From NCBI GenBank assembly GCA_023383055.1, contig JAHDYP010000008.1, forward strand, positions 11,341 through 75,340: a stretch of 64,000 nt of DNA, in the 5' to 3' direction. Position numbers and translations under genes: made by a program. The stretch comes from Verrucomicrobiota bacterium. GTDB taxonomy: Bacteria; Verrucomicrobiota; Verrucomicrobiia; Limisphaerales; JAHDYP01. Below, in pieces: positions 23,406 to 43,815 of this stretch (position 1 is its first letter; the number at the start of each line of letters is the position of its first letter). The notes beneath the pieces are model-generated. The model did not search any database. It saw only the letters and a list, made by a program, of their open reading frames with translations, and was not told the DNA's origin.

Positions 23406-23463
23406 CGACTCTTTCGGTCTATTCGCATAACAATTTATTCGCTTGGAGGGCGTCGTGTTAGTG

Positions 23464-23499
23464 GGTAAAGACCCCAGAGCGGGTGGAGGTAACGACCTA
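23464..23499 (+). promoter_or_regulatory. phased direct-repeat element (GGTAAAGACCCC-N12-GGTAACGACCTA) in the divergent NRPS / S8-protease spacer
   Basis: Read directly from the DNA. Member of the GGTGAARACCCC family listed in the findings. The second half-site is degenerate. Confidence 0.4.
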
Positions 23500-23637
23500 A
23501 GCGCATAACGTTCCCGAAGCGGCAGGGAGGACACCAAGCCGGTGTCAATGCCCGCCGCTGTGCCCGAGGTTGTTTTCCCCGGCTTTTGAGGGTTTCACCC
23601 CGTTGTTGGCTTCGCCTGGTGATGTGTAATGTAGCAA

Positions 23638-25388: not shown

Positions 25389-26918
25389 ATGTATGCAGAG
25401 GAACTCACCGACGCTTCATCGGTGCGCCTGACCGCTCCGGCCCGCGACGCACCGGAACTGAGTCATCGCGTGCAGCGTTCGCACTCACCGCGCCAGCCCA
25501 TTGCACTGTTGGGCGTCGCGTTTGACAATCTGACACTGCGCGAGACCGTGAACCGCATTGAGGAGATGATTGCCTCCCCGCGTTCGCATTACGTGGTCAC
25601 CGCGAACATGGATTTCCTCGCGGTGGCGCGGCGCGATCCGGAATTCCAGCGCATCCTGCTCAACGCACATCTGGTGTTGTGCGACGGCACACCGTTGGTC
25701 TGGGCCTCGCGACTGTTTGGAAATCCCCTGCCGGAGCGGGTTGCGGGCGCGGACGTCGTGCCGGAGTTGATCCGGGTGGCGGCGGAGAAACATTACCGGC
25801 TGTTCTTCCTCGGAGCGACTGAGGAATCCAACACTCAGGCCATTGCCCGGCTGCGGGCGCGGTTCCCCGATTTGGACATCAGCCATTATTCGCCGCCGTT
25901 CCGGCCTTTGCCGGAACTGGACAACGCAGACATCATCCGCCGGGTTCGCGCGGCCAAACCGGATTTGTTGTTCGTGGCGTTTGGATGTCCCAAGGCGGAA
26001 AAGTGGATGGCCAGGCATTATGCTGAACTCGGCGTGCCCGTGGCCATTGGCATCGGTGCGACCATTGATTTTCTCGCGGGCCGCGTAAAGCGCGCGCCGC
26101 TCTGGATGCAGCGTGGCGGCGTGGAGTGGATCTACCGGCTCTGCCAGGAACCACGGCGATTGTTCAAACGCTACGCCACCGATCTTTGGTTTTTCGGCCG
26201 GACGATGGCTCGTCAATGCCGGACGATGAAACTGCGATCCGGCGGGGGACAACCCCAGACCCGGACTGCGGTCATCCAGTCCAACGGCACGTGGCAGAGG
26301 GTGCAAGCCGCGAACTGCTTGCACAGGGATTGCATCGAACGTGACACGGCTCAGTGGAAACGGATTGCGGGCGCGGATCGGCATTGTCTGCTGGAGTTGG
26401 CGGAGGTGAAGTCAATGGACAGCACCGGCGTGGCCGTCCTGGTTCATTTGCAGAAACAACTGCACCTTTCCGGTCGTCAATTGATCCTGCTGTCACCCTC
26501 GGCCGCGGTACGGCGTGCATTAAAGGCGATGCGGTTGGAGAACTTCTTCGAAGTCGCGACCGATGCTCTCGAAGCGCGGGCGGTGCTCGAAACCCGGTTG
26601 CACGAGCGGGACGCATCCACAGGGGATGACTCAGGCAGCTTGCTGGTGTGGTTGGGCGAAATCCCCGCGATCAATGCCGAACAAATCTGGCAATGCACCC
26701 AAGCCGCGATTCATCGCCACCATGCAACGGCTGAATCCTGGACGCTTGACCTCGCGGCGGTGCGCTTCATGGACAGCGACGGCGTCAAGTTGTTGCTGCG
26801 CGCCGTGGAAATCGCGCGCGCCCACGGCATTTGCCTGCGTTTCAGCCATCCGTCCCTGCGGGTGCGAAACGTGTTGCGCGGCTCCAACCACGAATACCTT
26901 CTGGATCATTCCGCATGA
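25389..26918 (+). CDS. WecG/TagA/CpsF-family glycosyltransferase fused to two C-terminal STAS domains
   Basis: N-terminal half matches the WecG/TagA pattern (VAFDNLTLRETV, HYVVTANMDFL, LVLCDGTPLVWASRL, LPERVAGADV). C-terminal half holds two STAS-like units with LAEVKSMDSTGVAVLV (Ser codon 26421-26423) and LAAVRFMDSDGVKLLL (Ser codon 26775-26777). Confidence 0.8.
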   Translation: MYAEELTDASSVRLTAPARDAPELSHRVQRSHSPRQPIALLGVAFDNLTLRETVNRIEEMIASPRSHYVVTANMDFLAVARRDPEFQRILLNAHLVLCDGTPLVWASRLFGNPLPERVAGADVVPELIRVAAEKHYRLFFLGATEESNTQAIARLRARFPDLDISHYSPPFRPLPELDNADIIRRVRAAKPDLLFVAFGCPKAEKWMARHYAELGVPVAIGIGATIDFLAGRVKRAPLWMQRGGVEWIYRLCQEPRRLFKRYATDLWFFGRTMARQCRTMKLRSGGGQPQTRTAVIQSNGTWQRVQAANCLHRDCIERDTAQWKRIAGADRHCLLELAEVKSMDSTGVAVLVHLQKQLHLSGRQLILLSPSAAVRRALKAMRLENFFEVATDALEARAVLETRLHERDASTGDDSGSLLVWLGEIPAINAEQIWQCTQAAIHRHHATAESWTLDLAAVRFMDSDGVKLLLRAVEIARAHGICLRFSHPSLRVRNVLRGSNHEYLLDHSA

Positions 26919-29751: not shown

Positions 29752-30888
29752 ATGAATTCCGCGGTGCGTGCAAAAGCTGAGATTGATATTCTGCTGCTCG
29801 AAGACAGTTGCCGGGACGTGGAGCTGGTGGCGCACGCGTTGCGGCGCGGAGGCCTGGGCTTCAAGGTCGAGCACGTGGACAGCAAGCGCGCCTTCATTCA
29901 GCGCCTCAATCAACGCGCTCCCGATTTGATCCTCTCGGATTTTTCGCTGCCGACCCTCGATGGTTACACGGCGCTCGCCATCGCCCACAAGAAATGCCCG
30001 GAGGTGCCTTTCATTTTCGTGTCCGGGACGCTTGGCGAGGAAACGGCGATTGAAACGTTGAAGAAAGGCGCGACCGATTATGTGCTCAAGGAGCGCCTGG
30101 TGCGGCTCGTGCCCTCCGTGCAACGGGCCTTGCGGGAGGCCAGGGAACGAACCGGGCGGCGGCGCGCCCAGGAACAACTCCGGCGCTCGCATAAACAACT
30201 GCGCACGCTTTCGGATTATCTGCAGTATGTCCGCGAAGAGGAGCAAATCCGCATCGCGCGGGAAGTCCACGATGAACTGGGCCAGTCGTTAACCGGCCTG
30301 AAGCTGCAACTGACCTGGCTCGCGAGCCGGCTGCCGAAGCGATCGAAGCCGCTTCACGAAAAAGCGCGGTCCATGGCCGCGCACATTGACGAAACCATCC
30401 AGGTCGTTCGCCGCATCGCCACCGAACTCCGCCCCGGCGTGCTCGACACCGCCGGATTGCTCGCCGCGCTGGAATGGCAGGCGAACGCATTTCAAACCCA
30501 GACCGGTATAGTGTGCGAGGTGAAAACTCAGATGAAGGAAACACTCTGGGACCAGGACCTCAACACCGCGTTCTTTCGCATCTTTCAGGAAGCCCTCACC
30601 AACATCATCCGGCACGCCAAGGCGACGAAAGTGGAAGTGCGCCTGGCGGAAGCCCGCGGCCAGGTCGTGCTCGAGGTCACGGACAACGGGCGCGGCATTT
30701 CCGACGCGGAAATTCATAATACGAAATCCATCGGGCTGCTTGGCATTCGCGAGCGCGCGGCGTTGCTGGGCGGCACCGTGCGCATCAAAGGCGGGCGCGG
30801 CAAGGGCACCGCCCTGACGGCCCGTATTCCCAAAACGTCCGTGGCGCGGACGAGATTGCATTCCCATGAGAATTCTCATCACCGATGA
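29752..30888 (+). CDS. REC-HisKA_3-HATPase_c sensor kinase (NarL-partner type)
   Basis: REC: LLLEDS, DLILSDFSLPTLDG, FVSGT, DYVLK. H-box REVHDELGQSLTGLK. ATPase motifs DNGRGI and GLLGIRERA. Start set to ATG 29752 (MNSAVRAK), 11 nt after the upstream stop. Confidence 0.8.
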   Translation: MNSAVRAKAEIDILLLEDSCRDVELVAHALRRGGLGFKVEHVDSKRAFIQRLNQRAPDLILSDFSLPTLDGYTALAIAHKKCPEVPFIFVSGTLGEETAIETLKKGATDYVLKERLVRLVPSVQRALREARERTGRRRAQEQLRRSHKQLRTLSDYLQYVREEEQIRIAREVHDELGQSLTGLKLQLTWLASRLPKRSKPLHEKARSMAAHIDETIQVVRRIATELRPGVLDTAGLLAALEWQANAFQTQTGIVCEVKTQMKETLWDQDLNTAFFRIFQEALTNIIRHAKATKVEVRLAEARGQVVLEVTDNGRGISDAEIHNTKSIGLLGIRERAALLGGTVRIKGGRGKGTALTARIPKTSVARTRLHSHENSHHR

Positions 30889-31495
30889 TCACGCCGTCGT
30901 GCGACAAGGCTTGCGGCTGATTCTCGCGGATCATTTCAAGAAAGCCGTGTTCGGCGAAGCGCGCAACGCCACGGAGGCGCTGGCCCGCGTCTGGAAGGAG
31001 AAATGGGACGTGGTGGTGCTTGACATCACGATGCCAGGCCGCAGCGGGCTGGAGGTGTTGAAGGAAATCAAACGGTCGCGCCCGAAATTGCCGGTGCTGG
31101 TCCTGAGCATGCATCCCGAAGACCAGTTCGCCGTGCGCCTCCTCAAGGCGGGCGCGGCGGGGTATCTCACGAAGGAGAGCGCGGGCGAGGAATTGGTCGG
31201 TGCCATCAAGAAAGTGGTCGGCGGCGGACGCTATATCAGTCCATCGCTGGCAGAGCGCATGGCCGCGTATCTGACCATCGACGTTCAGAAAGCGCCGCAC
31301 GAACGGTTATCGGACCGGGAATTCCTGATTCTGCGCATGTTCGCCTCCGGCAAACAAGTCAGCCAGATCGCCGGGGAACTGTCGCTGAGTGTCTCCACCG
31401 TCAGCACCTACCGCGCGCGCATCCTGGAGAAGATGGACATGAAGAACAACGCCCAACTGACACATTACGCGCTACAGAAGGAATTGGTGGATTGA
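30866..31495 (+). CDS. NarL/LuxR-family response regulator (REC + HTH)
   Basis: ILITDDH, DVVVLDITMPGRSG and a LuxR-type HTH (LSDREFLILRMFASGKQVSQIAGELSLSVSTVSTYRARILEKM). Overlaps the upstream kinase by 23 nt. It is the only DNA-binding protein I can identify in the window. Confidence 0.9.
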   Translation: MRILITDDHAVVRQGLRLILADHFKKAVFGEARNATEALARVWKEKWDVVVLDITMPGRSGLEVLKEIKRSRPKLPVLVLSMHPEDQFAVRLLKAGAAGYLTKESAGEELVGAIKKVVGGGRYISPSLAERMAAYLTIDVQKAPHERLSDREFLILRMFASGKQVSQIAGELSLSVSTVSTYRARILEKMDMKNNAQLTHYALQKELVD

Positions 31496-31596: not shown

Positions 31597-34524
31597 ATGA
31601 ACGACGAATCCAACGTGAATGGCGAGTTGCCCGATCCCTCCGCCAGCGGCAGGTCGCCGGGCCGGGCCAGGGGCAACGGCCATCGGCCGCCGTCCGAACC
31701 CAAAGCGCCGCAGTTCGGCGCGGCGGACCTCCTGCCTTTCGTAAACGCGCTGGGACAGCACTGGAGGTGGCTGTGGCTCGGCGGAACGGCGATGGCCCTG
31801 ATCGGGCTGCTTTCCGGTTTGTGGCTTTGGAAGCCCAGTTACACGGCCTCGGCGCAGTTGCTGCGTCAGGCTTCGGCGCAGGTGATGGAAGTTCTCGGTG
31901 ATCGCGAGTTGGATCCGAACACTTACGCCAGTGTGCTGCGCGCGCCGGAATTGGTGCAGCGCGTGGCCGCCCACGCCCGGCCACCGGTTACGCCCGAGTG
32001 GCTGGACAAGCGACTCAACATCACCCCGGAACGAAACAGTGATCTCCTCCTCATTGCTGTTTCCACCGGCGATCGGCAGGGCGCGGTGGATCTGGCCAAT
32101 CTTTACGCGCGGGAAGCCGTGGGGTTCATGCAGGAATTACAGACCAATGCCGCCGCGCGAGCCAGAATCCTGCTCGCCCAACAACTCGCTCCGATCGAAG
32201 CTGAAATCTCCTCGCTGAACAAGGCAACTCAACCAGCAGCCGCCCGCCGTGCGGTTGCGGCGCGATCGCCATTACTCGACAAGCTCCCCGCTGCGCAGCT
32301 GGAACTGGCCGATCTGCTGGCGCGCTACACCGAGCTACATCCGCTCGTGCGGGAACAGCAGGCGAAGGTGGCAGCCATCGAAAGTCAATTGCGGCTGGTG
32401 CCCGCAACGCCGCCAACGGCAGCCGACATTGCGGAAGAGGGGAGTGCCGGGCCGATCGGGCAGGATCGCGATCCCGTGGTCCTGCAGACGAAACTTCAAT
32501 CGCTGGAAAACGCGCGGCTGGCGTTGCTCGGGCAGATGCAGGCAGCCCTATCGCTGGAAACCCAACCGCCCGGGACATGCCGCATCCTCGCGCCGGCCAC
32601 GTTCAAAGCCGCGCTACCCCACACGCGAACAGCCAAGGTCGCGGTGCTCGCAGGATTTGGCGGCATGATAGGCCTCTTTATTGTCTGCGCCTTGATTTTG
32701 CTGGCCGAAGCAGTGGACCCCCGGCTCAAGACGGCCGCGGACGTGCAACGGGTCACGCGGCTGCCCGTCGTGGCGACGGCGGGTGACCTGGCGCACATGA
32801 CCGAAGCGGAACAGAGCAACTGGGCGTTTCGGGCGTGGACGAGTTTGCAGCGGTTGCTAAGCCCATCGTCGAACCAGGGGTTCGTTTGCGGCATCACGTC
32901 CTCGGAAAGTGGCGAAGGCCGTTCGACGTGGATCCGATTGCTGGCCGAGGAGGCGAGCCAACGCGGCTTTCGCGTCCTGACCATTATTGCGCGTCCGCCG
33001 GAGCATAACGGCAAAGCGATTACGGGGCAAAGCCGCAAGGCGATCACTGACTCGGCGCTGGCTGCGAACGATACCTCCGATTTGGAAGCGCTCGTGACCA
33101 GGAATGGGAACGGAGCGCTGACGGCGACCCATGTGCTCAACACACCGGACGAAGTGACGCAGAAATTGATTGGCCCGAATCCGGAACCCGTCGTGGAGAT
33201 TCCGCTGCCGGGTTGGGTGTGGAATCTCGAACGCCGCAAGCAATGGCACGCGGCCCTTCGTCACTGGAGCCAGATCGACAGCATCGCGCTGCTGGTCGAG
33301 TTGCCGCCCGCGTCCCTGCCGGAGACAGTGCTGCTGGCGGAGAATCTCCCCAACGTGATCTGGCTGGCAGACGGCGAGAAGGCGACGGCGGCCAGGACGC
33401 GCGAACAATTGGAGACGTTGCGCAACGCGCGTTGTCACCTGGCCGGAGCAGTGTTGAATCGTGCGCCGGTCCCGGTTTTGACCAATCGTTTTGCCCGCTG
33501 GCTGGGTTGCGCGGCGTTGATTTGCGGTCTGCCCGGGTGGTCCGCTTATGGCCAGGAGGGCGAAGTTCAATCCACGAACAAAACGGCCGGCGTGGCGAAT
33601 CCAAATCGTTCGCTCTCGGTCGTCACTCCCGCGCAGCGCGCCGCGTGGCAGGAGCGCTTGACACTTGGTCCCGGGGATGTGGTGACGCTGGCGCTGTGGG
33701 GCGAACCGGTCTTGACCCGCACGGAAGTGGCGGTCGGTCCCGACGGCCGGATCAGCTTTGCGGAAGCGCAGGACGTTCTCGCCACGGGACTGACGCTGGA
33801 CGAATTGCGCGTCAAGCTGGACGAGGAGCTCGGCAAGTATCGCCGCGCGCCACAAACGATGATTACGCCCGTCGCGTTCAGGAGCAAAAAATATTACGTC
33901 CTCGGCCGCGTCACGATGAAAGGGGTTTACGTTCTGGACCGGCCCATCACCTTGCTGGAAGCGGTCGCGCGCGCGCATGGTTTTGAAACCGGCCTGGTGG
34001 ATCGGAACATCATTACGGTGGCGGACTTCTCGCGAAGTTTTCTGATGCGCAAAGGTGAGCGCATGCCGCTCAACTTTGAAAGTCTGTTCCAAAATGGTGA
34101 TCTTTCGCAAAACCTCAGCATCGAGCCAGGCGACTATCTCTATTTCCCGGGCGCGAATGTCAAAGAAGTCTACGTCGTCGGTGAAGTGCGGTTGCCCGGT
34201 TCAACTCCCTACACCACTGGTTTGACGCTCATGGGCGCGATTACCGCCCGGGCCGGTTACACCGAGCGCGCTTACAAAGGCCGGGTGCTGGTCGTCCGCG
34301 GCTCATTGAACAAGCCGGAGACATTTGCCGTTGAGACCAAAGATATTCTTGCCGGGAAGGTGCCTGATTTTCGTTTGCAGCCCAAGGACATCATCTTTGT
34401 GAACTCGCGCCCGTTCATTTATGGCGAGGAACTGGCGGACTTGGCGATCACGGTGTTTCTCCAATCCCTTGTGTCGGTCGCCGTCGGCCAGGAATTGATC
34501 TATCCATTCCCAGTATCACCATGA
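31597..34524 (+). CDS. fusion protein: Wzz/GumC-like chain-length determinant + degenerate BY-kinase-like domain + Wza-like polysaccharide export (Poly_export/SLBB) region
   Basis: N-terminal TM segment plus a Wzz-like periplasmic/coiled-coil region. Second TM segment VAVLAGFGGMIGLFIVCALILLA. P-loop-like ITSSESGEGRSTW has Arg where the Walker A Lys is expected (codon 32920-32922). A signal-like segment RFARWLGCAALICGLPGWSAYG lies at ~33481-33560. It is followed by LGPGDVVTLALWGEP and SLBB-like repeats. Confidence 0.7.
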   Translation: MNDESNVNGELPDPSASGRSPGRARGNGHRPPSEPKAPQFGAADLLPFVNALGQHWRWLWLGGTAMALIGLLSGLWLWKPSYTASAQLLRQASAQVMEVLGDRELDPNTYASVLRAPELVQRVAAHARPPVTPEWLDKRLNITPERNSDLLLIAVSTGDRQGAVDLANLYAREAVGFMQELQTNAAARARILLAQQLAPIEAEISSLNKATQPAAARRAVAARSPLLDKLPAAQLELADLLARYTELHPLVREQQAKVAAIESQLRLVPATPPTAADIAEEGSAGPIGQDRDPVVLQTKLQSLENARLALLGQMQAALSLETQPPGTCRILAPATFKAALPHTRTAKVAVLAGFGGMIGLFIVCALILLAEAVDPRLKTAADVQRVTRLPVVATAGDLAHMTEAEQSNWAFRAWTSLQRLLSPSSNQGFVCGITSSESGEGRSTWIRLLAEEASQRGFRVLTIIARPPEHNGKAITGQSRKAITDSALAANDTSDLEALVTRNGNGALTATHVLNTPDEVTQKLIGPNPEPVVEIPLPGWVWNLERRKQWHAALRHWSQIDSIALLVELPPASLPETVLLAENLPNVIWLADGEKATAARTREQLETLRNARCHLAGAVLNRAPVPVLTNRFARWLGCAALICGLPGWSAYGQEGEVQSTNKTAGVANPNRSLSVVTPAQRAAWQERLTLGPGDVVTLALWGEPVLTRTEVAVGPDGRISFAEAQDVLATGLTLDELRVKLDEELGKYRRAPQTMITPVAFRSKKYYVLGRVTMKGVYVLDRPITLLEAVARAHGFETGLVDRNIITVADFSRSFLMRKGERMPLNFESLFQNGDLSQNLSIEPGDYLYFPGANVKEVYVVGEVRLPGSTPYTTGLTLMGAITARAGYTERAYKGRVLVVRGSLNKPETFAVETKDILAGKVPDFRLQPKDIIFVNSRPFIYGEELADLAITVFLQSLVSVAVGQELIYPFPVSP

Positions 34525-35765
34525 GCACCACCAATGCCTCCAACCCGGCGTCCGGGGGAAATCCTGGAAACGACTCCCCTCAAGACGACAGCAGGGACAA
34601 CCTGCCCTGTGGGTTTAGCGCAATGCTGCAGGGTGTGTTCGTCAACGGCCTTCTATTTGCCGTCGTGCTGATGGCCGGTTGCAGCACTGCAACCGTGCAA
34701 GACTACAACTCGAAAACTCACGGCGCCGCCCGCGCGCCGGCCGGCGTGAGTCCGGCCGGATCGGTGACGTTGACCAACGAACTGGACCAGCGTCTGCTCG
34801 AGGCGCCGACCGAGATGTTCACGCTGGGACCGGGGGACCGGCTCGAATTGGAGTTGATCGGCGATCCGGCTTCGCGAACCACCACGGTGGTGGCGCCGGA
34901 CGGAAAGCTCTATTTCAACCTGCTGCCGGGCCTGGATGTGTGGGGACTCACTTTGACGGAGGCGAAAGCCCGGCTGGAAAGCTCCTTCACCAATTATCAT
35001 CGCGAGCAGCCGCGGGTGGCGATGACCTTGCGCGGCGTGGAAAGCAAACGCCTCTGGGTCCTGGGAGTCGTGCAGGCACCGGGCGTTTATACCATGGCGA
35101 CGCCGAAGACCCTGCTGGAATCCATTGCGATGGCGGGCGGGACGTTGAGTATGACGACGTTCAGCGACCAGAACGCCGCAGGAATCGGCGAGGAACTGGC
35201 CGATTTGAAGCGCAGTTTTGTGCTTCGACAAGGCCGGCTCCTGGCCGTGGATTTCAACCGCTTGCTCCGGGAGGGTGATCTCAGCCAGAATATCTACCTG
35301 GAGCCGGATGATTTTGTTTATCTGCCGCCAGCCGCGTCGCGGCAGGTTTACGTTCTTGGCGCAGTGGTCCAGCCGCGGCCCGTGCCGTATATGGAAGGCA
35401 TGACCGTGGCCGGCGCGGTGGCGAGTGCCTACGGGACATTGCGGGACGCTTACCTGCCGCATGTAGCGGTGGTGCGCGGCTCGCTCGCGGAACCGCAGCT
35501 CACGATTGTCAATTACCGGAAGGTCATCCGGGGGGAGGAAAACGACATCCAACTGGAACCGAATGACATCGTGTACGTGCCGCTTTCGCCCTACCGGTAT
35601 TTGCGGCGGTATGCGGAAGTCATCTTGAACACTTTCGTCAGCGCTTCAGCAATCAGTGCCGGCTCATACTCCATAACCAAGGAGGAGGAGTTTGTCGGCG
35701 GCGTGTTCATTCCGGTGGGCAGCGGCGTTACGGTCATTCCGCCGGTTTCGCCACCTCCGCCGTGA
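34521..35765 (+). CDS. Wza-like outer-membrane polysaccharide export lipoprotein
   Basis: Lipobox-like VVLMAGCS, Poly_export-like FTLGPGDRLELELIGDP and SLBB-like repeats. ATGA overlap with the upstream gene. Confidence 0.75.
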   Translation: MSTTNASNPASGGNPGNDSPQDDSRDNLPCGFSAMLQGVFVNGLLFAVVLMAGCSTATVQDYNSKTHGAARAPAGVSPAGSVTLTNELDQRLLEAPTEMFTLGPGDRLELELIGDPASRTTTVVAPDGKLYFNLLPGLDVWGLTLTEAKARLESSFTNYHREQPRVAMTLRGVESKRLWVLGVVQAPGVYTMATPKTLLESIAMAGGTLSMTTFSDQNAAGIGEELADLKRSFVLRQGRLLAVDFNRLLREGDLSQNIYLEPDDFVYLPPAASRQVYVLGAVVQPRPVPYMEGMTVAGAVASAYGTLRDAYLPHVAVVRGSLAEPQLTIVNYRKVIRGEENDIQLEPNDIVYVPLSPYRYLRRYAEVILNTFVSASAISAGSYSITKEEEFVGGVFIPVGSGVTVIPPVSPPPP

Positions 35766-37735
35766 CCAGAGGCCGCCCAGACGTGAAAGGAGGTTGCAGA
35801 TATTTGCTTCAAGTGCGCGCCTGCAGGTGGCTGGCCGCGTTCGCCTGGTTTGGGCTGGTTCCCGCCTCAACAGCGGATACCACATGGAATTACGCGGTCC
35901 AGATCAGTGCCACGGTTCAGAGCGCGCCGCCGCAAATCATGCTCACCTGGCCACAGGACGATATCGGTGCGCTTCGCTATACGGTTTATCGGAAGGCCAA
36001 GGGAGACACTTCCTGGGGAACCGGCACGGTTGTGGACGGGACAACGACCCTTTACACGGACACCGCAATCAGCGTCGGTACAACCTACGAGTACCAAATC
36101 GTCAAGGACGCGACGAAGGGATACAAAGGTTACGGCTACATCTTCAGCGGCATTCAAGCGCCGTTGGCTGAGGAGCGCGGCAAGTTGATTCTGATTGTGG
36201 AGAATCGCCACACCACGGCGCTCTCCAACGAACTGGCCCGCCTGCAGAGCGATCTGACCGGTGACGGCTGGACGGTCATGCGCCATGATGTTTCGCCGAA
36301 TGATTCGCCGGCAGGTGTTCGCAACCTTATCATCGCCGATTACAGCGCTGACTCCACAAAAGTGAACACGGTGTTTCTGTTTGGTCATGTGCCGGTGCTG
36401 CATTCGGGAAATCTGAATTATGACACCCATGGCTCCCGTCCGATGCCGGCCGATGCCTATTATGGCGATGTGAATGGCAATTGGAGCGGGAATCCCGGTT
36501 ATCTGCCCTCCGACGTCGAGTTGATGGTAGGCCGGGTGGACCTGTTCGACATGCCGGGAAACAATGCGCCGAGCCCGTGGCCGGGCGAAGTGGAGTTGCT
36601 GCGGAACTATTTGAACAAGGATCACAACTTTCGCCAGAAACTCGTCACCGCGCCGCATCGCGCGCTCATGGGCGATCGCAGCGGAGCCGAAGGGGGACTT
36701 GCTACAGCGGCCAGCGGGTATCGAAACTTTCAGCCACTGCTCGGGCCGGGCACCATTGTTCACGCCAACGTGGAGAATGCTTCCCCGCCCGAGATGCGCT
36801 GGGGGCCGATGCTCGCGGCGGAAAGTTATCTCTGGGCGTTCGGCACCGGTGCCGGAAGCCAGACGACCCTCGGCTACCTTGGCACCCACGGACCCTACGC
36901 CGATCTCTACAGTATTGATGTGGTTGGTCAGGACGCGAAGGCGGTGTTCGTGATGCTGCTCGGAAGCTGGTTCGGCGAGTGGGATGGGAAGGACAATTTC
37001 ATGCGCGCGTTTCTGGCGACGCCATCACTGGGTTTGACCGCCTGCATGGCCGGAATGCCTCATTGGTATGTTCATCACATGGGCCTTGGCGAAACCATCG
37101 GATACGGCACGCGATTGACCATGAACAACAGCACACTTTACCGGAACCAAAACAACGTCTTCATGCGCGCAATCTATATCGCGCTGATGGGCGACCCGAC
37201 GCTGCGCATGGACGTTGTTTCGCCGCCCGGCGCGTTGAGCGCAATAGTGGGTGGCGGTGGCGTGACGCTGAACTGGCCGGCTTCGGCGGATGCCGTTCTG
37301 GGGTATCATGTTTATCGCAGCACGTCGCCAGGCGGTCCGTTCCCACGGCTGACCCCTTCGCTCGTGACCGCGAACACGTTCACGGACCCCACTGCTGCAT
37401 TAGCCACTTACACCTACATGGTGCGCGCGGTGACGCTGCAAACGACTCCCAGCGGAAGTTATTACAATGCGAGTCAAGGTGCCTTTGTGACGGTGGACGC
37501 AGCCATTGTTTCCTTGCCGATTCATTTGTCCGCGTCCCGGGCTGCGAACGAGCTGCGGCTCAGTTGGAATTCCCGGATTGGCGCTCAATACCGGGTGCTC
37601 GCCAATACCAATCCAGGCCAGACCGACTGGGTCGCCGTGAGCGGCAGGATCACCGCCACGGGAACCATTACTGCCTGGACGGACCCGACTTTCAGTTCCC
37701 AGTCTCAACGGTTTTATCAAATCACGAGTCCTTAA
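35762..37735 (+). CDS. secreted FN3-domain protein with gingipain(C25)-like central region and C-terminal RFY domain (paralog 1)
   Basis: The signal-like sequence CRWLAAFAWFGLVPASTA/DTTW suggests the real start is TTG 35804 or GTG 35813, after the AAAGGAGG at 35786-35793. N-terminal FN3-like unit (LRYTVYRKAK...YEYQIV). Central block has FLFGHVPV, PADAYYGD and ELMVGRVD. An internal FN3 follows (VTLNWPASADAVLGYHVYRS). C-terminus is ...QRFYQITSP. Confidence 0.55.
   Translation: MTRGRPDVKGGCRYLLQVRACRWLAAFAWFGLVPASTADTTWNYAVQISATVQSAPPQIMLTWPQDDIGALRYTVYRKAKGDTSWGTGTVVDGTTTLYTDTAISVGTTYEYQIVKDATKGYKGYGYIFSGIQAPLAEERGKLILIVENRHTTALSNELARLQSDLTGDGWTVMRHDVSPNDSPAGVRNLIIADYSADSTKVNTVFLFGHVPVLHSGNLNYDTHGSRPMPADAYYGDVNGNWSGNPGYLPSDVELMVGRVDLFDMPGNNAPSPWPGEVELLRNYLNKDHNFRQKLVTAPHRALMGDRSGAEGGLATAASGYRNFQPLLGPGTIVHANVENASPPEMRWGPMLAAESYLWAFGTGAGSQTTLGYLGTHGPYADLYSIDVVGQDAKAVFVMLLGSWFGEWDGKDNFMRAFLATPSLGLTACMAGMPHWYVHHMGLGETIGYGTRLTMNNSTLYRNQNNVFMRAIYIALMGDPTLRMDVVSPPGALSAIVGGGGVTLNWPASADAVLGYHVYRSTSPGGPFPRLTPSLVTANTFTDPTAALATYTYMVRAVTLQTTPSGSYYNASQGAFVTVDAAIVSLPIHLSASRAANELRLSWNSRIGAQYRVLANTNPGQTDWVAVSGRITATGTITAWTDPTFSSQSQRFYQITSP
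35897..36030 (+). repeat. near-identical 134-nt tract shared with 37938-38071 (candidate gene-conversion patch between tandem paralogs)
   Basis: By direct comparison at an offset of 2041 nt there are 4 mismatches in 134 nt (one in the first 107 nt). Flanking paralogous sequence is roughly 75-85% identical by eye. Confidence 0.8.
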
Positions 37736-37859
37736 TAGAACCATGCATTCAACCCACCGACCCATTGAACCCAGAGGCGCAGACCCGGCCGAGAACCGCA
37801 GAGTCCCATTCTCCCAGCGGGCTTCGCCGTTTGGGGAGCGGCTTCCGTTTCCCGCGCAG

Positions 37860-39776
37860 ATGGTTCTGGCCGCGTGCGGCTTGCTCACATTCATCGCTGC
37901 GCCGATTTCCAAAGCGGATAGCACGTGGAACTATGCCGTCCAGATCAGTGCCACGGTTCAGAGCGCGCCGCCGCAAATCACGCTCACCTGGCCACAGGAC
38001 GATATCGGTGCGCTTCGCTATACGGTTTATCGGAAGGCCAAGGAGGCGACTTCCTGGGGAACCGGCACGGTGCTGGACGGAACAACGACTCTTTACACCG
38101 ACGTCAACGTGGTCATCGGCACAACTTACGAGTATCAAATCGTCAAAGATGCGACGCTGGGATACAAGGGTTTTGGTTACATCTTCAGCGGCATTCAAGC
38201 GCCGTTGATTGACGATCGTGGCAAGTTGATTCTGATCGTGGACAACCGGCACGTCACGGCGCTGTCGGACGAACTGGCCCGCCTGCAAAGCGATTTAACC
38301 GGCGACGGCTGGACGGTCATTCGCCATGACGTCTCGCCCAATGATACGCCATCAAGTGTTCGCAACCTCATTATCGCCGACTACAACGCTGACCCCACGA
38401 AAGTGAGCACGGTATTCCTGTTCGGGCATGTGCCGGTTCTACGTTCGGGGACTCTGAACTACGACGGCCATGGGTCCCGCCCGATGCCGGCAGATGCCTA
38501 CTATGGCGACATGAATGGCAACTGGAAGGGCAACCCCAGCTATCTGCCGTCCGACGTCGAGTTGATGGTGGGTCGGGTGGACATGTTCGATATGCCCGGA
38601 CATTATGCAACGATTCCATGGCCGGACGAAGTGGAGTTGCTGCGGAATTATTTGAACAAGGACCACAACTTTCGCCGGAAACTCGTCACCGTGCCGCATC
38701 GCGCGCTGATGGGGGATCGGCGCGGAGACGCAGAAGGAGTCGCGCCGGCGGCCAGCGGGTATCGGAATTTTCAGCCGCTGCTGGGGCCGGGTAAAATTGT
38801 CCAAGCCAACATTGACAATGTTTCCGCGCCCGAGATGCGCTGGGGGCAGATGCTCGCGGCGGACAGTTATCTCTGGGCGTTCGCCACGGGCGCCGGAAGC
38901 CAGTCGAGCCTCGGCTACTTTGGCACCAACGGGCAATACCAGGATCTCTACAGTTTTGAAGTGGTCGGTCAGGACGCGAAAGCGGTTTTCGTCATGATGC
39001 TCGGCAGCTGGTTCGCCGAGTGGGACGGAACGGACAACTTAATGCGTGCGTTTCTGGCGACGCCGTCGCTCGGGCTGACCGCCTGCTCGGCTGGAATGCC
39101 GCACTGGTTTGTGCATCACATGGGCCTCGGCGAAACCAGCGGCTACGGCACGCGCCTGAGCATGAACAACCGCACGCTTTACCAGAGCCAGGTCAACGTT
39201 TACACGCGCGCAGTTTACATTGCGCTGATGGGCGATCCGACCCTGCGAATGGATCCCGTGGCGCCCCCCGGAGCATTGGGCGGTCTGTCGACCGGGGGTG
39301 GCGTAACGCTGACCTGGCCGGCTTCGGCAGATGCCGTCTTGGGTTATCACGTTTATCGCAGCGCGACGCCGGGCGGGCCGTTCGCGCGCCTGACCGGTTC
39401 GCCCGTGCCTGGCAACACGTTCACGGACCCAACCGCTGCGGCGAACACTTACACCTACATGGTGCGTGCGGTGACACTGCAAACCACGCCCAGCGGAAGT
39501 TATTTCAACGCCAGTCAGGGTGCCTTTGTGACGGTGAACGCGGCCATCGTCGCTTTGCCGATTCAATTGTCCGCGAACTGGGCTGCGAACGGACTGACGC
39601 TCAGTTGGAATTCCCAGATTGGCGCTGCATACCGTGTGCTGGCCAGCACGAATGCAAACCAGACCGACTGGGTCGCCGTGAGCGGCAGGATAACGGCCAC
39701 CGAATTAAACACTTCCTGGACAGATGCAAGTCTGGGTCCCCTCCCGCGACAGTTTTATCGGATCACCAGTCCGTAG
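37860..39776 (+). CDS. secreted FN3-domain protein with gingipain(C25)-like central region and C-terminal RFY domain (paralog 2)
   Basis: ORF track 37743..39776. Start moved to ATG 37860 (MVLAACGLLTFIAAPISKA/DSTWNY), which gives a signal peptide. Collinear with paralog 1 throughout. C-terminus is ...RQFYRITSP. Confidence 0.55.
   Translation: MVLAACGLLTFIAAPISKADSTWNYAVQISATVQSAPPQITLTWPQDDIGALRYTVYRKAKEATSWGTGTVLDGTTTLYTDVNVVIGTTYEYQIVKDATLGYKGFGYIFSGIQAPLIDDRGKLILIVDNRHVTALSDELARLQSDLTGDGWTVIRHDVSPNDTPSSVRNLIIADYNADPTKVSTVFLFGHVPVLRSGTLNYDGHGSRPMPADAYYGDMNGNWKGNPSYLPSDVELMVGRVDMFDMPGHYATIPWPDEVELLRNYLNKDHNFRRKLVTVPHRALMGDRRGDAEGVAPAASGYRNFQPLLGPGKIVQANIDNVSAPEMRWGQMLAADSYLWAFATGAGSQSSLGYFGTNGQYQDLYSFEVVGQDAKAVFVMMLGSWFAEWDGTDNLMRAFLATPSLGLTACSAGMPHWFVHHMGLGETSGYGTRLSMNNRTLYQSQVNVYTRAVYIALMGDPTLRMDPVAPPGALGGLSTGGGVTLTWPASADAVLGYHVYRSATPGGPFARLTGSPVPGNTFTDPTAAANTYTYMVRAVTLQTTPSGSYFNASQGAFVTVNAAIVALPIQLSANWAANGLTLSWNSQIGAAYRVLASTNANQTDWVAVSGRITATELNTSWTDASLGPLPRQFYRITSP
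37938..38071 (+). repeat. partner copy of the 35897-36030 near-identical tract
   Basis: See 35897-36030. Confidence 0.8.
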
Positions 39777-40023: not shown

Positions 40024-43000
40024 ATGTTCTGGAAAAGACGCTGTGTCGTTCTCGGCATCCTTGGTGCTGGTCAATGTGCCTCGATGCTTTATGCAGCAGC
40101 GCTGGCCGTCTCCGTGGTCGCGAGTGATCCCACCGCGACCCTCGGGACAACGGACCCTGCCGCGTTCACTTTCACCCGCGAGGGAAGCACGGCCGCCAGT
40201 CTGGCGGTCAATTTCTCGCTGGGCGGCACGGCGGCGAAATGGACGGATTATCGCCGGTTGCCGGAAGGGGACATGCCGGTTACAATCACGATTCCCGCAG
40301 GCGAAGTGTCAGCGGCGCTCGCGATCTACGGAATGGCCAACTCGACCCTGGCCAATCCGCAAACCGTCAGCCTCACACTTCTACCGGACGCAGCTTACAC
40401 GGTCGGATCGCCGAACAGCGCGGTTGTGAACATTCAGTCCATTCCCGGTTCGACTCCGACGAATCCTCCGGCGAACACCCACACTCCTCCGCCCAACACG
40501 AACAGCACGGCGCCCGCGGCCAGCACCACGCCCAGCCTGATTGACGATGCATCGCCCGCGCTGCCAAAAGTCGGCGCCCACCGCCTGCGCATTTTATCGC
40601 CGACGCTCATTGAAATGCGGCGCATCAATTCCAAACAACCCGATCCTGCGCGCGTGGATAGCTGGGACTTCATCAACCCCTCGGGCCAGCTGGAAACTCC
40701 GCCGGTCACACAATTCGCCGTGACGGTCAACGGCCAGCCCGTGGCGGTGCAATCGCTTGGTTTCAAACGCCGCCCGCTTTACGCGCCACTGGTGACTCGC
40801 GATCTGCGAATCGAAAACAGCCTCTACCTCCAACTCGCCACGCCCATCGCGGACCATCAAACCGTTGAAGTCAAGAACCCCGGCGGCGCGCTCTGGCCGG
40901 CGACCATGTCCTTCGTTGCCACGGCCGATCCGTTGCGCCACAGCCCCATCATTCACGTGAACCAGGAGGGTTACGTGCCGTCATTCCCCAAAAAGGCGAT
41001 GGTGGGTTACTACCTGGGCAATCTGGGTGAAATGGACATCTCCGCGTCACTTGGATTCACACTCGTGGACGCGACAACCGGCGCGCAAGTGTATCAAGGC
41101 GGCCTGACGCTGCGTCAGGATATCGGTTATCTCTACACGCCGACGCCCTATCAGAAGGTGCTGGAAGCCGATTTCAGCAACTTCACAACGCCTGGGCGCT
41201 ATCGACTCATGGTGCCGGGACTCGGCGCGTCGTTCACCTTCGCCATCGAGGACGGAGTAGCAATGGCCTTCGCGCGCGCTTACGGACTCGGGCTTTATCA
41301 TCAGCGCTGCGGCGCCAGCAATTCAATGCCGTTCACCCGTTTCGCACACGACACCTGCCACACAGCGGCGGCGAGCGTTCCGTTGCCGCAATCCTCGTTC
41401 AGCTTCACCTGGGCGACCATCGCGAATTACGCGGCGATTACTCATCCGGACAATCCCGTGCCGACCGCGCCGAGGCTTTCCAGCCCGTCCGCGCAGTTGT
41501 TCCCTTTCGTGCGGCAAGGCACGGTGGATGTTTCCGGCGGCCATCACGACGCGGGCGATTACAGCAAGTACACCGTCAACAGCGCCGGCCTCGCTCATAC
41601 GCTGATGTTCTCGGCGGACTCGCTGGCCGGCGTGGCGCCGCTCGACAATCTCGGGATTCCCGAAAGTGGCGATGGCATCAGCGATGTATTGCAGCAAGCG
41701 AAATGGGAAGCCGATTATCTTTCCAAGCTGCAGGACTCCGATGGCGGGTTCTATTTCCTCGTCTATCCGAAAGACCGGGAATACGAAAGCGGCACGCCGC
41801 CCGATCAAGGCGATGCCCAAGTCGTGTGGCCGAAGACCACGTCCGCCACGGCGGCCGCGGTGGCCGCGCTGGCGCAATGCGGTTCGTCGCCGTTGATGAA
41901 GCAACATTACCCGCAAGCGGCCGCCAGTTACCTGGCCAAGGCTACGCTCGGCTGGCAGTTCCTGGCGAACGCCGTCGCGCTTTACGGCAAGGACGGCGCG
42001 TATCAGAAAATCACGCACTACGGCGACAACTATGCGGATCGAGACGAACTCGCCTGGGCCGCGGCCGAAATGTATGTGGCCACCGGTGATCCTTCCTATC
42101 AACAGACGCTGTTTCAGTGGTTCCCCGATCCGACGGCCACCAGCACATTCCGCTGGAGTTGGTGGCGCATGTCGGAAGGCTGGGGACACGCCATTCGCAG
42201 TTACGCCTTTGCGGTTCGCAGCGGACGCCTGCAACCGAACCAGCTCGAGCCGAATTATCTGGCCAAGTGCCTCGCGACGATCACGAACGCCGGCAACGAC
42301 GCGCTCCTCTGGTCGCAGCAAAATGCTTACGGCAGCAGTTTCCCGCTGGAAACCAAGCGCGTGCGCAGCGCCGGCTGGTATTTTTCCGCTGCCCAGGCAT
42401 TCGATGTCGCCGTGGCGCAGCAGGTCGCCTCGCGTCCGGACTATCTGGATGCGCTGGTGCGCAACATGAACTACGAAGGCGGCTGCAATCCGGTCAACAT
42501 GACTTACATCACCGGCCTGGGCTGGAAACGTCAGCGCGAGATTGTGGATCAATATTCCCTGAGCGACCGGCGCGTGCTGCCCAAGACCGGCATCCCGCTC
42601 GGCAACATTCAAAACGGGTTTGTATGGGTGAACACCTACGGCACGGAACTGGCCGCGTTGTGTTATCCGTCTGATGCGGCCGCGACCGGGCCGGTTCCGT
42701 TCTATGACCGCTGGGGTGATGCATTCAACACCACGACTGAATTCGTGGTGCTGGACCAGGCGCGCGGCCTCGGCGTCGCGGCGTATCTCGCGGGGCTGAC
42801 TTCGGTGAAAGCACAATCGTGGGGATCGGGCACCGCACAACTTTCCGTACCGACCGGCGTCGTGCCCGTCGGTGAGCCGGTGACGATCTCACTGCAATCC
42901 GGCCTCGACTTGAACGGCGCGCGGATCGTCTGGGAAGGCCGCGATCACGAACCGGCCTACGGTTCACATTTTACTTTCACGCCGCGGAACAACGGCACGC

Positions 43001-43815
43001 AGTGGATCGAAGCCGAGGCTCAATGGCCGGATGGACGTCGCGTGTTTGCCGAGGCGACTTTCACCGCGAACAGTCCGAACGTGGTCTGGGTCGAAGACGC
43101 GGTGCCGACGGGTGGCGTGCCCGGCGCCGGTGGCGGCGATTCGTGGAACTGGATCCGCAGCAATCCAGCGCCGTACTCCGGCAGCTCCGCGCATCAATCG
43201 GCTTCAGCCGCCGGGCTGCACGAGCATTGGTTTGATAACGCCACGGCGACCTTGGACATCATCAGCGGCGATACGTTATATGCCTATGTTTACCTCGATC
43301 CAGCCAATCCACCGATCGAAATCATGCTCGCGTGGAACAACGGCAATTGGGAACATCGTGCGTATTGGGGAGCGAACCACATTACCTACGGCATCAATGG
43401 CACCGACAGCCGCCGTTACGTGGGGCCGCTGCCGGCTGCGGGTCAGTGGGTGCGGCTCGAAGTCCCGGCCAGTCAGGTCGGACTGGAAGGCAGCACCCTC
43501 AAAGGCATGGACTTTTCGGCTTATGGCGGACGCGTAACCTGGGATCGCGCCGGCAAGACGAGCATTGTCAGCGGCGTTGAACCCATTGGCCAGGTGCCTG
43601 TTTCCATCAGCCGGATTTCCGGCGGAGCGATGCAGTTCAACTGGCCGAGCGTTGTCGGTAGAATCTATCGCGTCGCCTACAAGAACAATCCTGCGGACGA
43701 CGCTTGGACCGATCTGAGCGGAAGCATCCCCGCCACCGGCACGACGTGTTCGTGGGCGGATATCAGCGCCGCGAGCGCGAGCCAACGGTTCTACGTGGTT
43801 TACGTGGTGAACTGA
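40024..43815 (+). CDS. secreted GH9-like glycoside hydrolase with N-terminal Calx-beta-like domain, Ig-like CelD_N-type domain, extra C-terminal domains and RFY tail
   Basis: Signal-like N-terminus, a Calx-beta-like unit (GGTAAKWTDYRRL...ITIPAGEV) and a Pro/Thr linker. HVNQEGYVPSFPKKAMVGY resembles the Ig-like N-domain of GH9 enzymes. DVSGGHHDAGDYSKY (41524-41570) resembles the GH9 DAGD catalytic motif. Also NYEGGCNPVNMTYITGLG and TTEFVV. C-terminus is ...QRFYVVYVVN. Confidence 0.7.
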   Translation: MFWKRRCVVLGILGAGQCASMLYAAALAVSVVASDPTATLGTTDPAAFTFTREGSTAASLAVNFSLGGTAAKWTDYRRLPEGDMPVTITIPAGEVSAALAIYGMANSTLANPQTVSLTLLPDAAYTVGSPNSAVVNIQSIPGSTPTNPPANTHTPPPNTNSTAPAASTTPSLIDDASPALPKVGAHRLRILSPTLIEMRRINSKQPDPARVDSWDFINPSGQLETPPVTQFAVTVNGQPVAVQSLGFKRRPLYAPLVTRDLRIENSLYLQLATPIADHQTVEVKNPGGALWPATMSFVATADPLRHSPIIHVNQEGYVPSFPKKAMVGYYLGNLGEMDISASLGFTLVDATTGAQVYQGGLTLRQDIGYLYTPTPYQKVLEADFSNFTTPGRYRLMVPGLGASFTFAIEDGVAMAFARAYGLGLYHQRCGASNSMPFTRFAHDTCHTAAASVPLPQSSFSFTWATIANYAAITHPDNPVPTAPRLSSPSAQLFPFVRQGTVDVSGGHHDAGDYSKYTVNSAGLAHTLMFSADSLAGVAPLDNLGIPESGDGISDVLQQAKWEADYLSKLQDSDGGFYFLVYPKDREYESGTPPDQGDAQVVWPKTTSATAAAVAALAQCGSSPLMKQHYPQAAASYLAKATLGWQFLANAVALYGKDGAYQKITHYGDNYADRDELAWAAAEMYVATGDPSYQQTLFQWFPDPTATSTFRWSWWRMSEGWGHAIRSYAFAVRSGRLQPNQLEPNYLAKCLATITNAGNDALLWSQQNAYGSSFPLETKRVRSAGWYFSAAQAFDVAVAQQVASRPDYLDALVRNMNYEGGCNPVNMTYITGLGWKRQREIVDQYSLSDRRVLPKTGIPLGNIQNGFVWVNTYGTELAALCYPSDAAATGPVPFYDRWGDAFNTTTEFVVLDQARGLGVAAYLAGLTSVKAQSWGSGTAQLSVPTGVVPVGEPVTISLQSGLDLNGARIVWEGRDHEPAYGSHFTFTPRNNGTQWIEAEAQWPDGRRVFAEATFTANSPNVVWVEDAVPTGGVPGAGGGDSWNWIRSNPAPYSGSSAHQSASAAGLHEHWFDNATATLDIISGDTLYAYVYLDPANPPIEIMLAWNNGNWEHRAYWGANHITYGINGTDSRRYVGPLPAAGQWVRLEVPASQVGLEGSTLKGMDFSAYGGRVTWDRAGKTSIVSGVEPIGQVPVSISRISGGAMQFNWPSVVGRIYRVAYKNNPADDAWTDLSGSIPATGTTCSWADISAASASQRFYVVYVVN

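Follow-up and report, generated by a model that had tools for sequence, protein, structure and literature searches.

A conserved gene fusion in Verrucomicrobiota joins a polysaccharide co-polymerase and a predicted pseudokinase to an outer-membrane export protein through a signal-peptide-like segment

Proteins of the polysaccharide co-polymerase (PCP) and outer-membrane polysaccharide export (OPX) families are the two halves of a trans-envelope conduit for capsules and exopolysaccharides, and their 8:8 assembly has only recently been visualised (Wza-Wzc and PslD-PslE). In the stretch of 64,000 nucleotides analysed here (Verrucomicrobiota bacterium from soil, assembly GCA_023383055.1, contig JAHDYP010000008.1, positions 11,341 to 75,340; hereafter the window, whose own numbering is used), one open reading frame (ORF) contains both halves. 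This raises the question of whether such a gene is real and, if so, whether the cell obtains from it one chain or two proteins. A preliminary description of this DNA had left two options, a genuine fusion with a dead-looking kinase domain or two proteins separated by an unrecognised internal start.

The results revealed a true gene fusion, which is kept throughout Verrucomicrobiota and which lies in a Wzx/Wzy-type exopolysaccharide cluster. Concerning the fate of its product, the overall explanation that we prefer, with somewhat better than even confidence, is that PCP-pseudokinase and OPX are made together and would be cut at an internal signal peptide into two proteins.

The features of the ORF are displayed in Table 1. 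The frame is uninterrupted over its 975 codons, as first described, and the order of its parts proposed at that time, that is, a Wzc-like co-polymerase, a P-loop domain, a hydrophobic segment and a Wza-like export region, was recovered by Pfam and NCBIfam scans, hydropathy and structure. In the N-terminal part the family matches were weak: Pfam Wzz at amino acids (aa) 44-124 reached 19.3 bits against a gathering score of 25.5, and the chain-length-determinant models of NCBIfam at aa 55-273 remained far under their cut-offs. The full-length AlphaFold2 (AF2) model, with a predicted local distance difference test score (pLDDT) of 75.9, was matched by Foldseek to full-length Wzc with an E value of 8e-24 and about 720 aligned columns. 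Two transmembrane (TM) helices surround a large, mostly helical periplasmic domain with long helices at aa 160-210, 225-267 and 293-322, and a cytoplasmic domain of the bacterial tyrosine kinase (BY-kinase) fold follows C-terminally on the same polypeptide, which is the architecture of PCP-2a proteins.

In the OPX half, Poly_export (PF02563) matched aa 686-756 with 54.1 bits (gathering score 28), and the SLBB/SLBB_2 models matched aa 856-935 above their gathering scores (PF22461, 76.8 bits; PF10531, 45.1 bits), with NCBIfam OPX matches at aa 682-940. This half was aligned by phmmer to Wza structures (E about 3e-24) over Wza residues of approximately 49-331, covering D1 to D3, and Foldseek matched the fusion to Wza entries 9r64_A (E 1e-18) and 2j58_A (E 2e-17). 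The loop between beta1 and beta2 of D1, which forms a Tyr gating ring in Wza (PMC12819527), is 10 residues shorter in the HMMER alignment to Wza (10 gap positions). The predicted C-terminal helix, of 23 residues, occupies the position of Wza D4 and is shorter than the Wza helix (345-376); its propensity to insert into the inner membrane is low, its hydrophobic moment is 0.20, and E944 and F954 are invariant. A fourth inner-membrane TM helix at this place was considered and is unlikely, given a summed insertion free energy of about +6 and the D4 position. From three membrane passages it follows that the N-terminus lies inside, the PCP domain in the periplasm, the pseudokinase in the cytoplasm and the OPX part again in the periplasm. 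It should be noted that these proteins of about 1000 aa are now annotated merely as "polysaccharide biosynthesis/export family protein", a name that leaves the PCP half, the pseudokinase and the probable processing site unlabelled; the automated annotations already carry both COG names.

Table 1. Features of the fusion ORF and of the two genes next to it (window coordinates).
Feature	Position	Strand	Evidence or remark
GacA/NarL-type response regulator	30866..31495	+	Immediately upstream of the fusion; adjacent in 38 loci
Whole fusion ORF	31597..34524	+	975 codons/975 aa, ATG start, uninterrupted; PCP, predicted BY-pseudokinase, internal signal-peptide-like segment, OPX
TM1 (aa 56-77), N-in to out	31762..31827	+	Hydropathy; AF2 helix 56-77
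Periplasmic PCP (Wzc/Wzz-like) domain, aa 78-343	31828..32625	+	Weak Pfam/NCBIfam matches; Foldseek to Wzc
TM2 (aa 344-373), out to in	32626..32715	+	Strongest hydropathy peak; AF2 helix 344-373
Cytoplasmic domain of BY-kinase fold, predicted pseudokinase (aa 376-622)	32722..33462	+	Profile against PDB; AF2; Foldseek
Walker-A-like P-loop GITSSESGEGRST, aa 432-444	32890..32928	+	Arg442 (CGT, 32920-32922) at the catalytic Lys site
Walker A' equivalent FRVLTIIARPP, aa 458-468	32968..33000	+	Pairs with CapB YKTLVIDGD; no DxD
Walker B equivalent ALLVELPPA, aa 564-572	33286..33312	+	Pairs with CapB IIIVDTPPV; Glu for Asp, Leu for Thr
Internal Sec-signal-peptide-like segment RFARWLGCAALICGLPGWSAYG, aa 631-652	33487..33552	+	Junction alignment; equivalence with split loci
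Disordered linker of variable length, aa 653-676, ending in TN(L)SFSVV	33553..33624	+	AF2 pLDDT <50
Wza-like OPX region: D1 (Poly_export/PES), D2, D3 (SLBB)	33625..34416	+	Pfam; phmmer; Foldseek
C-terminal amphipathic helix (aa 941-963), candidate outer-membrane-spanning	34417..34485	+	AF2, pLDDT about 72-77
Second, separate OPX paralogue, 414 aa	34521..35765	+	Poly_export and SLBB; lipobox VVLMAG/C (LMAG/C, aa 50-54)

An ORF of this kind could be an assembly or sequencing artefact in which a lost stop codon or a frameshift merged two genes; the window derives from a metagenome-assembled genome (MAG), and a few homologous loci are split or frameshifted (L055, L066, L070, L075, L076 and L078). 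Against this, the same in-frame fusion recurs in over 100 independent assemblies, which stem from many different studies and lineages. An NCBI protein from a Verrucomicrobia MAG is 100% identical to the window fusion, and more than 100 full-length homologues of about 950-1060 aa show 45-81% identity. When one genome of each species was scanned, 80 loci were obtained, nearly all of them in MAGs of Verrucomicrobiota (Limisphaerales/Pedosphaera, Opitutaceae, Verrucomicrobiales), and in about 65 of them a single tblastn high-scoring segment pair in one frame spans the query from about 1 to 970, down to about 37-40% identity. As these loci and more than 100 protein clusters have both halves in frame, the artefact is rejected and its probability can be taken as negligible. 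The orthologues are thus not consistently split, the pattern that had been linked in advance to a sequencing error, and of the two options in the preliminary description the genuine fusion is the one that held.

The exhaustive search with a profile of the middle domain gave 184 representatives (50% identity clusters, E<=1e-30). When the best 150 of these 184 were classified, 59 were fused and 51 ended within 25 residues past the middle domain; 18 had a tail of more than 25 residues with no OPX domain (mostly contig-end cuts) and the other 22 were fragments.

Regarding the disrupted loci, the fusion ORF of L066 (9854-13187) stops inside D1 and goes on in a different frame with the C-terminal portion of the second OPX, which looks like a deletion or recombination between both OPX paralogues or an assembly chimera, and L055 carries a frameshift close to its 3' end. 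Several contigs that bear the module (L004/L067/L071, L021, L022, L025, L065 and L080) were deposited as Candidatus Acidoferrum, Baltobacteraceae, Limnocylindrales, Acidobacteria and even a Methanomassiliicoccaceae archaeon. These contigs, with a Verrucomicrobia-type module under foreign names, are probably mis-binned and not cases of horizontal transfer.

The second question depends on the segment that joins the halves. In the window it consists of the n-region RFAR, the h-region WLGCAALICGLPGW and the c-region S-A-Y-G, with a predicted signal peptidase I (SPase I) cut after G652, between nucleotides 33552 and 33553, leaving Q653 at +1 (A650-Y-G652/Q653; the slash marks the cut throughout). 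Nearly all homologues follow the pattern (K/R)(K/R)RF(P/A)RW, variable uncharged core, small-x-small and Gln, with c-regions such as SAQA/QE, ANA/QN and AYG/QE. The predicted cut is followed by a low-complexity linker, whose length varies widely, and next by the conserved TNLSFSVV.P.QRAAWQ and D1; from the cut to W684, where D1 starts, the median distance is 36 aa, the 5th percentile about 19 and the longest 234. Thus, the basic n-region, an h-region within about 10-15 aa (some 12-14 aa, variable among homologues) and the small residues at -1 and -3 that characterise Sec/SPase I signal peptides are all present, and the junction resembles N-terminal signal peptides of the same genome, which end in ...STSA/QA (a subtilase) and ...TTAA/QP (a GH9). 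The AF2 model shows a 16-residue helix at aa 632-647 followed by disorder at aa 648-676 (pLDDT <50). The summed Hessa free energy, a crude measure over the best 19-residue window, is about +5.3 for the junction, +0.9 for TM1 and -0.8 for TM2. On these values, the segment is signal-peptide-like and not a stable anchor.

The strongest evidence for this assignment comes from two split loci. In L076 and L078 the first gene stops just after the GAVLN motif, at ...GAVLNREPEPVIKL and ...GSVLNHEPKPIIKL, respectively; the OPX gene begins with MKTSILLSWLALALAALPVCA/AED in the former and MKLNRMLVLALFGSATLAVSLATA/AET in the latter, and the third gene encodes a lipoprotein OPX. The internal segment of the fusion is thus the positional equivalent of a bona fide cleavable signal peptide. 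The split orthologues match the fused ones in their PCP-pseudokinase (GEGRST / V(E/D)LPP), in their non-lipoprotein OPX and in the lipoprotein OPX downstream, and differ from them in the stop after ...LN(R/H)EPxPxIKL and in an OPX with its own Met and N-terminal signal peptide.

Two other types of export signal were discarded at the junction. No lipobox follows the h-region in the junction alignment of the homologues, and the Cys of RWLGC does not qualify as one, since it comes directly after the n-region with no h-region before it and is N, S, G or T in many homologues. The fused OPX has an SPase I-type c-region and lacks a lipobox, whereas the downstream paralogue has one. Tat export, suggested by RRRFPRW in some homologues, was rejected as the twin Arg is not conserved, the residues being mostly KKRF, KNRF or KSRF.

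Other architectures were also seen around this position. Three loci (L068, 6760-10524; L070, 7474-9021; L075, 1380-2951) have an extra domain of about 200-280 aa and a Pro/Ala-rich linker between the signal peptide and D1; it is in frame in L068, a 1255-codon fusion, whereas a separate OPX gene begins with it in L070 and L075, where that gene has its own signal or lipoprotein-like peptide. In L067 and L071, paralogous PCP-pseudokinase genes end just past RF(S/A)RW (at ...FSRWVTE and ...RFARWLPTALAASP, each followed by the stop), and the next 6-10 kb downstream contain no OPX gene; L067 and the fused L004 belong to one MAG.

Two proteins could also arise if translation started again just upstream of the hydrophobic segment. 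In the window, an in-frame TTG (Leu626, 33478-80) lies nine codons before the hydrophobic core, and the split loci show that the OPX half can work as a separate gene. However, in-frame ATG, GTG and TTG are all absent between GAVLN and the hydrophobic core in about 27 of 58 fused loci; where such codons occur their positions vary, and only 2 candidates have a motif resembling a Shine-Dalgarno (SD) sequence, which is also missing upstream of the TTG of the window. The junction is, in addition, conserved at the protein level as part of one frame. The GTG-encoded Val that had been placed near 33470-33480 is not there: the in-frame Val codons are GTC (33469-71) and GTT (33475-77), the TTG is the sole in-frame start-type codon of that interval, and the closest GTG in frame lies at 33451-53 and codes for V619 of the invariant GAVLN. 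With start codons and SD motifs missing or unconserved, the internal start proposed earlier is rejected and considered highly improbable.

With a single translation product, two fates have to be compared. In the first, which we infer to be the better supported, the Sec-type signal peptide would re-cross the inner membrane (N-in, C-out) and export the OPX part, and SPase I would cut after the small-x-small site, A650-Y-G652/Q653 in the window and A-x-A/Q in most homologues. One translation event would yield equimolar amounts of the PCP-pseudokinase, which would keep the signal peptide as a third membrane helix, and of a free periplasmic OPX. The latter would dock on the PCP crown and assemble the outer-membrane conduit, with its C-terminal helix possibly inserted in the outer membrane and probably together with the downstream lipoprotein OPX paralogue. 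Through the apparent internal secretion signal, the cell would in this way probably obtain two matched partners from one product.

In the second, the hydrophobic segment is a permanent third transmembrane helix and the OPX stays tethered by a flexible linker to the PCP of the inner membrane, giving a polypeptide that spans from inner to outer membrane with a fixed 1:1 ratio. The retention of one ORF over wide divergence fits this idea, and the disordered linker, with a median of about 36 aa and often 60 or more, could serve as a tether; the benefit of staying fused is less obvious if cleavage always occurs. Nevertheless, TM1 and TM2 are longer and more hydrophobic than the short, weakly hydrophobic h-region, which favours cleavage, as does the conservation of the c-region, with its small residues at -1 and -3 and Gln at +1, while the core drifts. 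Of 115 homologues, 70 have a strict A-x-A, compared with 52 on average and 69 at most when the sequences were shuffled 1000 times with their composition preserved, and the +1 residue is Gln in 48 of those 70; the other 45, the window protein included, lack the strict motif and are in line with an uncleaved chain. Distance is a further point. The solved structures of Wza-Wzc and PslD-PslE place D1 on top of the PCP crown, some 120-156 A away from the inner membrane (PMC13434223). In some homologues the predicted cut and W684 are separated by only about 19-22 residues, of which about 15 belong to the conserved TN.SFSVV.P.QRA motif, so that roughly 5-8 non-conserved residues would lead from the membrane to the OPX motif; so short a tether could not reach a docked D1, which again favours cleavage. 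The split loci, finally, work with an ordinary cleavable signal peptide at the same position. On balance, and judging from sequence features, cleavage by SPase I is favoured with fair confidence, and the uncleaved chain is a possible but clearly less probable outcome.

Several points weigh against cleavage or against parts of the scheme. The A-x-A statistic is modest (70 versus a shuffled mean of 52), and the window site itself is A-Y-G/Q and not A-x-A. Some of these features could also persist for a time in an ancestral signal peptide that was retained but is no longer used. RF(P/A)RW also ends the unfused paralogues L067 and L071, and part of the "n-region" may therefore serve the pseudokinase tail. 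No Pfam Wza_C match was obtained for the C-terminal helix of the fusion, and the AF2 monomer is uninformative on processing.

Regarding the middle domain, Pfam and NCBIfam scans of the fusion gave no match in it (aa about 380-660), and a single-sequence phmmer search against PDB returned Wza only and no BY-kinase; the homology emerged only by family profile and structure. With a 17-sequence profile of aa 376-630, the best PDB matches were CapA/CapB chimeras of S. aureus (CapA1B1, E 1.4e-6), followed by PslE, VpsO and Etk, PslE being the best non-CapB match (E 0.03). The AF2 model of the isolated domain (pLDDT 76.5) gave a top 50 of Foldseek PDB matches made up entirely of BY-kinases (CapAB, Wzc, Etk, BceF), with template modelling scores of 0.6-0.69.

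The catalytic motifs of this fold have been lost. In the profile-PDB alignment GEGRST pairs with CapB GAGKST, so that Arg442 occupies the place of the catalytic Lys, at the codon where the Arg had first been read; of 115 homologues, 112 have Arg at residue 442, 3 have Cys and not one has Lys, and among the representatives of the middle-domain family this residue is R in 92, K in 7, C in 4 and Q in 1. In the Walker A' region LTIATR pairs with LVIDGD, and the homologues keep FRVLTI(A/I)(T/A)RP with no Asp. In the Walker B region LVELPP pairs with IVDTPP; L569, P570 and P571 are invariant and V567 and E568 are at least 90% conserved. The family motif GAVLN, after Walker B, pairs with CapB GVILN. 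This motif-by-motif alignment agrees with the equivalents TIIARPP and LLVELPP read from the letters alone. The C-terminal Tyr cluster is likewise absent, as had been stated: 81 of 86 homologues have 0 Tyr in aa 608-635, the last 28 residues of the domain, whose C-terminus runs on into the signal-like segment. A canonical Lys/Asp set elsewhere in the domain, which would have spoken for an active kinase, was looked for and rejected, as the 17-sequence domain alignment contains no invariant Lys or Asp. On the other side of the balance, the middle domain is among the best-conserved parts of the fusion (GEGRSTW, GFRVLTI, IPLPGWVWNLERRKQW, LVELPPA), which indicates that it is under selection and not decaying. 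Only the insert at aa 470-509 is disordered and variable (pLDDT <50); in one homologue (P0035) this loop carries a CPHCGQRIEYPENTEEDSFPCPEC insertion, a CxxC...CxxC zinc-ribbon-like element.

The BY-kinase fold, the loss of the catalytic Walker residues and of the Tyr tail, and the link to a PCP-2 protein agree with the definition of BY pseudokinases (PMC12004946, PMC13434223). The dead-looking kinase of the preliminary description, without catalytic Lys, DxD, Asp or Tyr tail, is thus best described from motifs and model as a conserved pseudokinase of a kind already known from EcpK, HfsB and PslE. It is predicted to be unable to act as a tyrosine autokinase, and by analogy with these three proteins its role is most likely that of a phosphorylation-independent oligomerisation scaffold.

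An alternative is that the domain is alive as a non-canonical nucleotide-binding or -hydrolysing switch with an Arg P-loop and a Glu Walker B, in which the nucleotide state would control PCP oligomerisation or export; this would fit both fates of the junction. G-x-x-x-x-GEGRST, S443, T444 and VELPP hardly vary, and some unfused relatives retain VDLPP and a few GEGK(S/T)T. Such conservation is far above that of EcpK, which keeps none of the motifs (PMC12004946). The near-intact P-loop suggests that nucleotide binding may persist and that a pure scaffold may be too simple a description, which counts against our reading of the domain. However, the Walker A Lys and both Walker A' Asp, the residues of Mg-ATP catalysis in BY-kinases, are gone, there is neither a Tyr acceptor tail nor an alternative invariant Lys or Asp, and the P-loop Lys (K540 in Wzc, K55 in CapB) is needed for catalysis; the matched BY-kinase PDB entries use K-to-M dead mutants. 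A live switch is accordingly rated as unlikely. A broader and tentative idea would combine both themes: a single-chain PCP-OPX machine, either an uncleaved inner-outer membrane link or a polyprotein split by SPase I, whose Arg-P-loop domain may be a nucleotide-sensing, phosphorylation-independent switch.

Since Arg-P-loop pseudokinases occur in fused and unfused members, the degeneration of the kinase is independent of the fusion. In a rough neighbour-joining (NJ) tree of the pseudokinase domain, fused and unfused forms are interleaved, a homogeneous clade of 12 short unfused proteins is nested within, and proteins ending just past RF(P/A)RW are scattered among the fused ones. Several fusion or fission events appear to be implied, and the tree would fit either direction.

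Concerning the surroundings, the second Wza-like lipoprotein gene that had been noticed behind the fusion with an ATGA overlap proved to be a real OPX paralogue with both domains and a lipobox (Table 1), and it follows the fusion in 73 of the 80 loci. The order response regulator, fusion, second OPX is conserved; histidine kinases and the WecG-STAS gene often lie upstream of the fusion, and two paralogues of no assigned family and GH9 often lie downstream. The window also encodes Wzy_C, two GT4, one GT2, a WecG-type glycosyltransferase with STAS domains, two GH9 and a two-component system, and by this content the locus reads as a Wzx/Wzy-type exopolysaccharide export module.

In the second OPX, about 34-40 aa of low complexity (34521-34622) precede the lipoprotein signal peptide as an extension, and its start candidates in the window are ATG 34521 and ATG 34623. 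Similar extensions are found in close relatives (L001, L002 and L013), and distant ones begin with a short lipoprotein signal (MK...LLAGC). Directly after it, two tandem paralogues of about 660 aa (35762-37735 and 37743-39776, plus strand), conserved downstream of the fusion in 13 loci, share the N-terminal motif (D/S)TTWNYAVQISATVQSAPPQI.LTWPQDDIGA past the signal peptide; their sole match is a marginal one to Peptidase_C25 (23 and 21 bits), with none in NCBIfam. One possibility is that they serve the export module as a partner in the outer membrane or at the surface.

Two large GH9 (+CelD_N) hydrolases (40024-43815 and 44041-46686, plus strand) co-occur with the fusion in 13-14 loci. This pair may be the glycanase of the pathway, analogous to PslG or BcsZ, and hints at a beta-glucan-like polymer. 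Upstream of the fusion in 13 loci, and in the window at 25389-26918 (plus strand), a WecG/TagA glycosyltransferase is fused to two STAS domains of the anti-sigma-antagonist type. This unusual enzyme-regulator fusion sits upstream of two hybrid histidine kinases and the response regulator and suggests a partner-switching control of the first glycosyl transfers. Further away, on the minus strand (4969-23537), two giant non-ribosomal peptide synthetase ORFs of 3973 and 2216 aa contain condensation, AMP-binding and PP-binding domains. With an ABC exporter and a phosphopantetheinyl transferase on their flanks, they form a separate secondary-metabolite cluster beside the exopolysaccharide locus.

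All parts of the fusion are of known kinds (PCP-2a, BY pseudokinase, Wza-like OPX, Sec signal peptide), and a covalent PCP-OPX with an internal signal peptide was not found described; the searchable OPX/PCP literature gave no PCP-OPX fusion, a search that did not include Cuthbertson et al. 2009. A conserved natural fusion argues independently for the selection of strict 1:1 co-production and co-localisation. If the polyprotein split by SPase I is true, polysaccharide export would gain a form of stoichiometric co-production that has so far not been described for it. With one gene and one internal signal peptide, the fusion is also a tractable test case for the delivery of an OPX to its PCP. Furthermore, it extends the BY-pseudokinase theme to a whole phylum, and its near-canonical P-loop makes it a good test of nucleotide sensing.

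A precedent for the processing belongs to an unrelated family and pathway. The cytochrome b/c1 polyprotein FbcH of Bradyrhizobium japonicum was reportedly shown by experiment to be cleaved (Thony-Meyer et al., PNAS 1991): its internal signal sequence after the membrane domain is said to be processed, which frees the downstream partner on the periplasmic side in fixed stoichiometry. FbcH resembles the fusion in that one bacterial gene gives two membrane or periplasmic proteins via an internal signal sequence, with cleavage shown there and predicted here.

Among export systems, PslE of Pseudomonas aeruginosa is a PCP whose fused kinase-like domain has neither the active site nor the Y-cluster (PMC13434223), and the fusion is like it in being a PCP-2a with a kinase-like domain that is predicted to be inactive and would work without phosphorylation cycling. 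PslE and PslD form a complex of about 1:1 (8:8) PCP:OPX (PMC13434223). They are encoded by separate genes, however, and PslD is a lipoprotein without D2 and with a beta-strand pore, in contrast to the OPX of the fusion with its D1-D3 and predicted C-terminal helix. EcpK of Myxococcus xanthus and HfsB of Caulobacter are stand-alone BY pseudokinases proposed as PCP-2 scaffolds (PMC12004946). They share with the middle domain a BY-kinase fold without functional Walker A, A' or B motifs or a Tyr tail, but they pair with kinase-less PCPs and keep no motifs, whereas the domain of the fusion is joined to its PCP and has a near-canonical P-loop with a single Lys-to-Arg change.

Finally, the Wzc-Wza system of E. 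coli (group 1 capsule/colanic acid) presents the same two families in the same functional order and in a Wzx/Wzy-type setting, the PCP half corresponding to Wzc by fold and the OPX half to Wza by sequence and fold, with D1-D3 and a predicted C-terminal helix. The fusion differs from it in being one ORF, in its degenerate kinase without a Tyr cluster, in an OPX with a signal of the SPase I type instead of a lipoprotein signal and with a D1 beta1-beta2 loop that is shorter in the alignment, and in the second, lipoprotein OPX encoded beside it.

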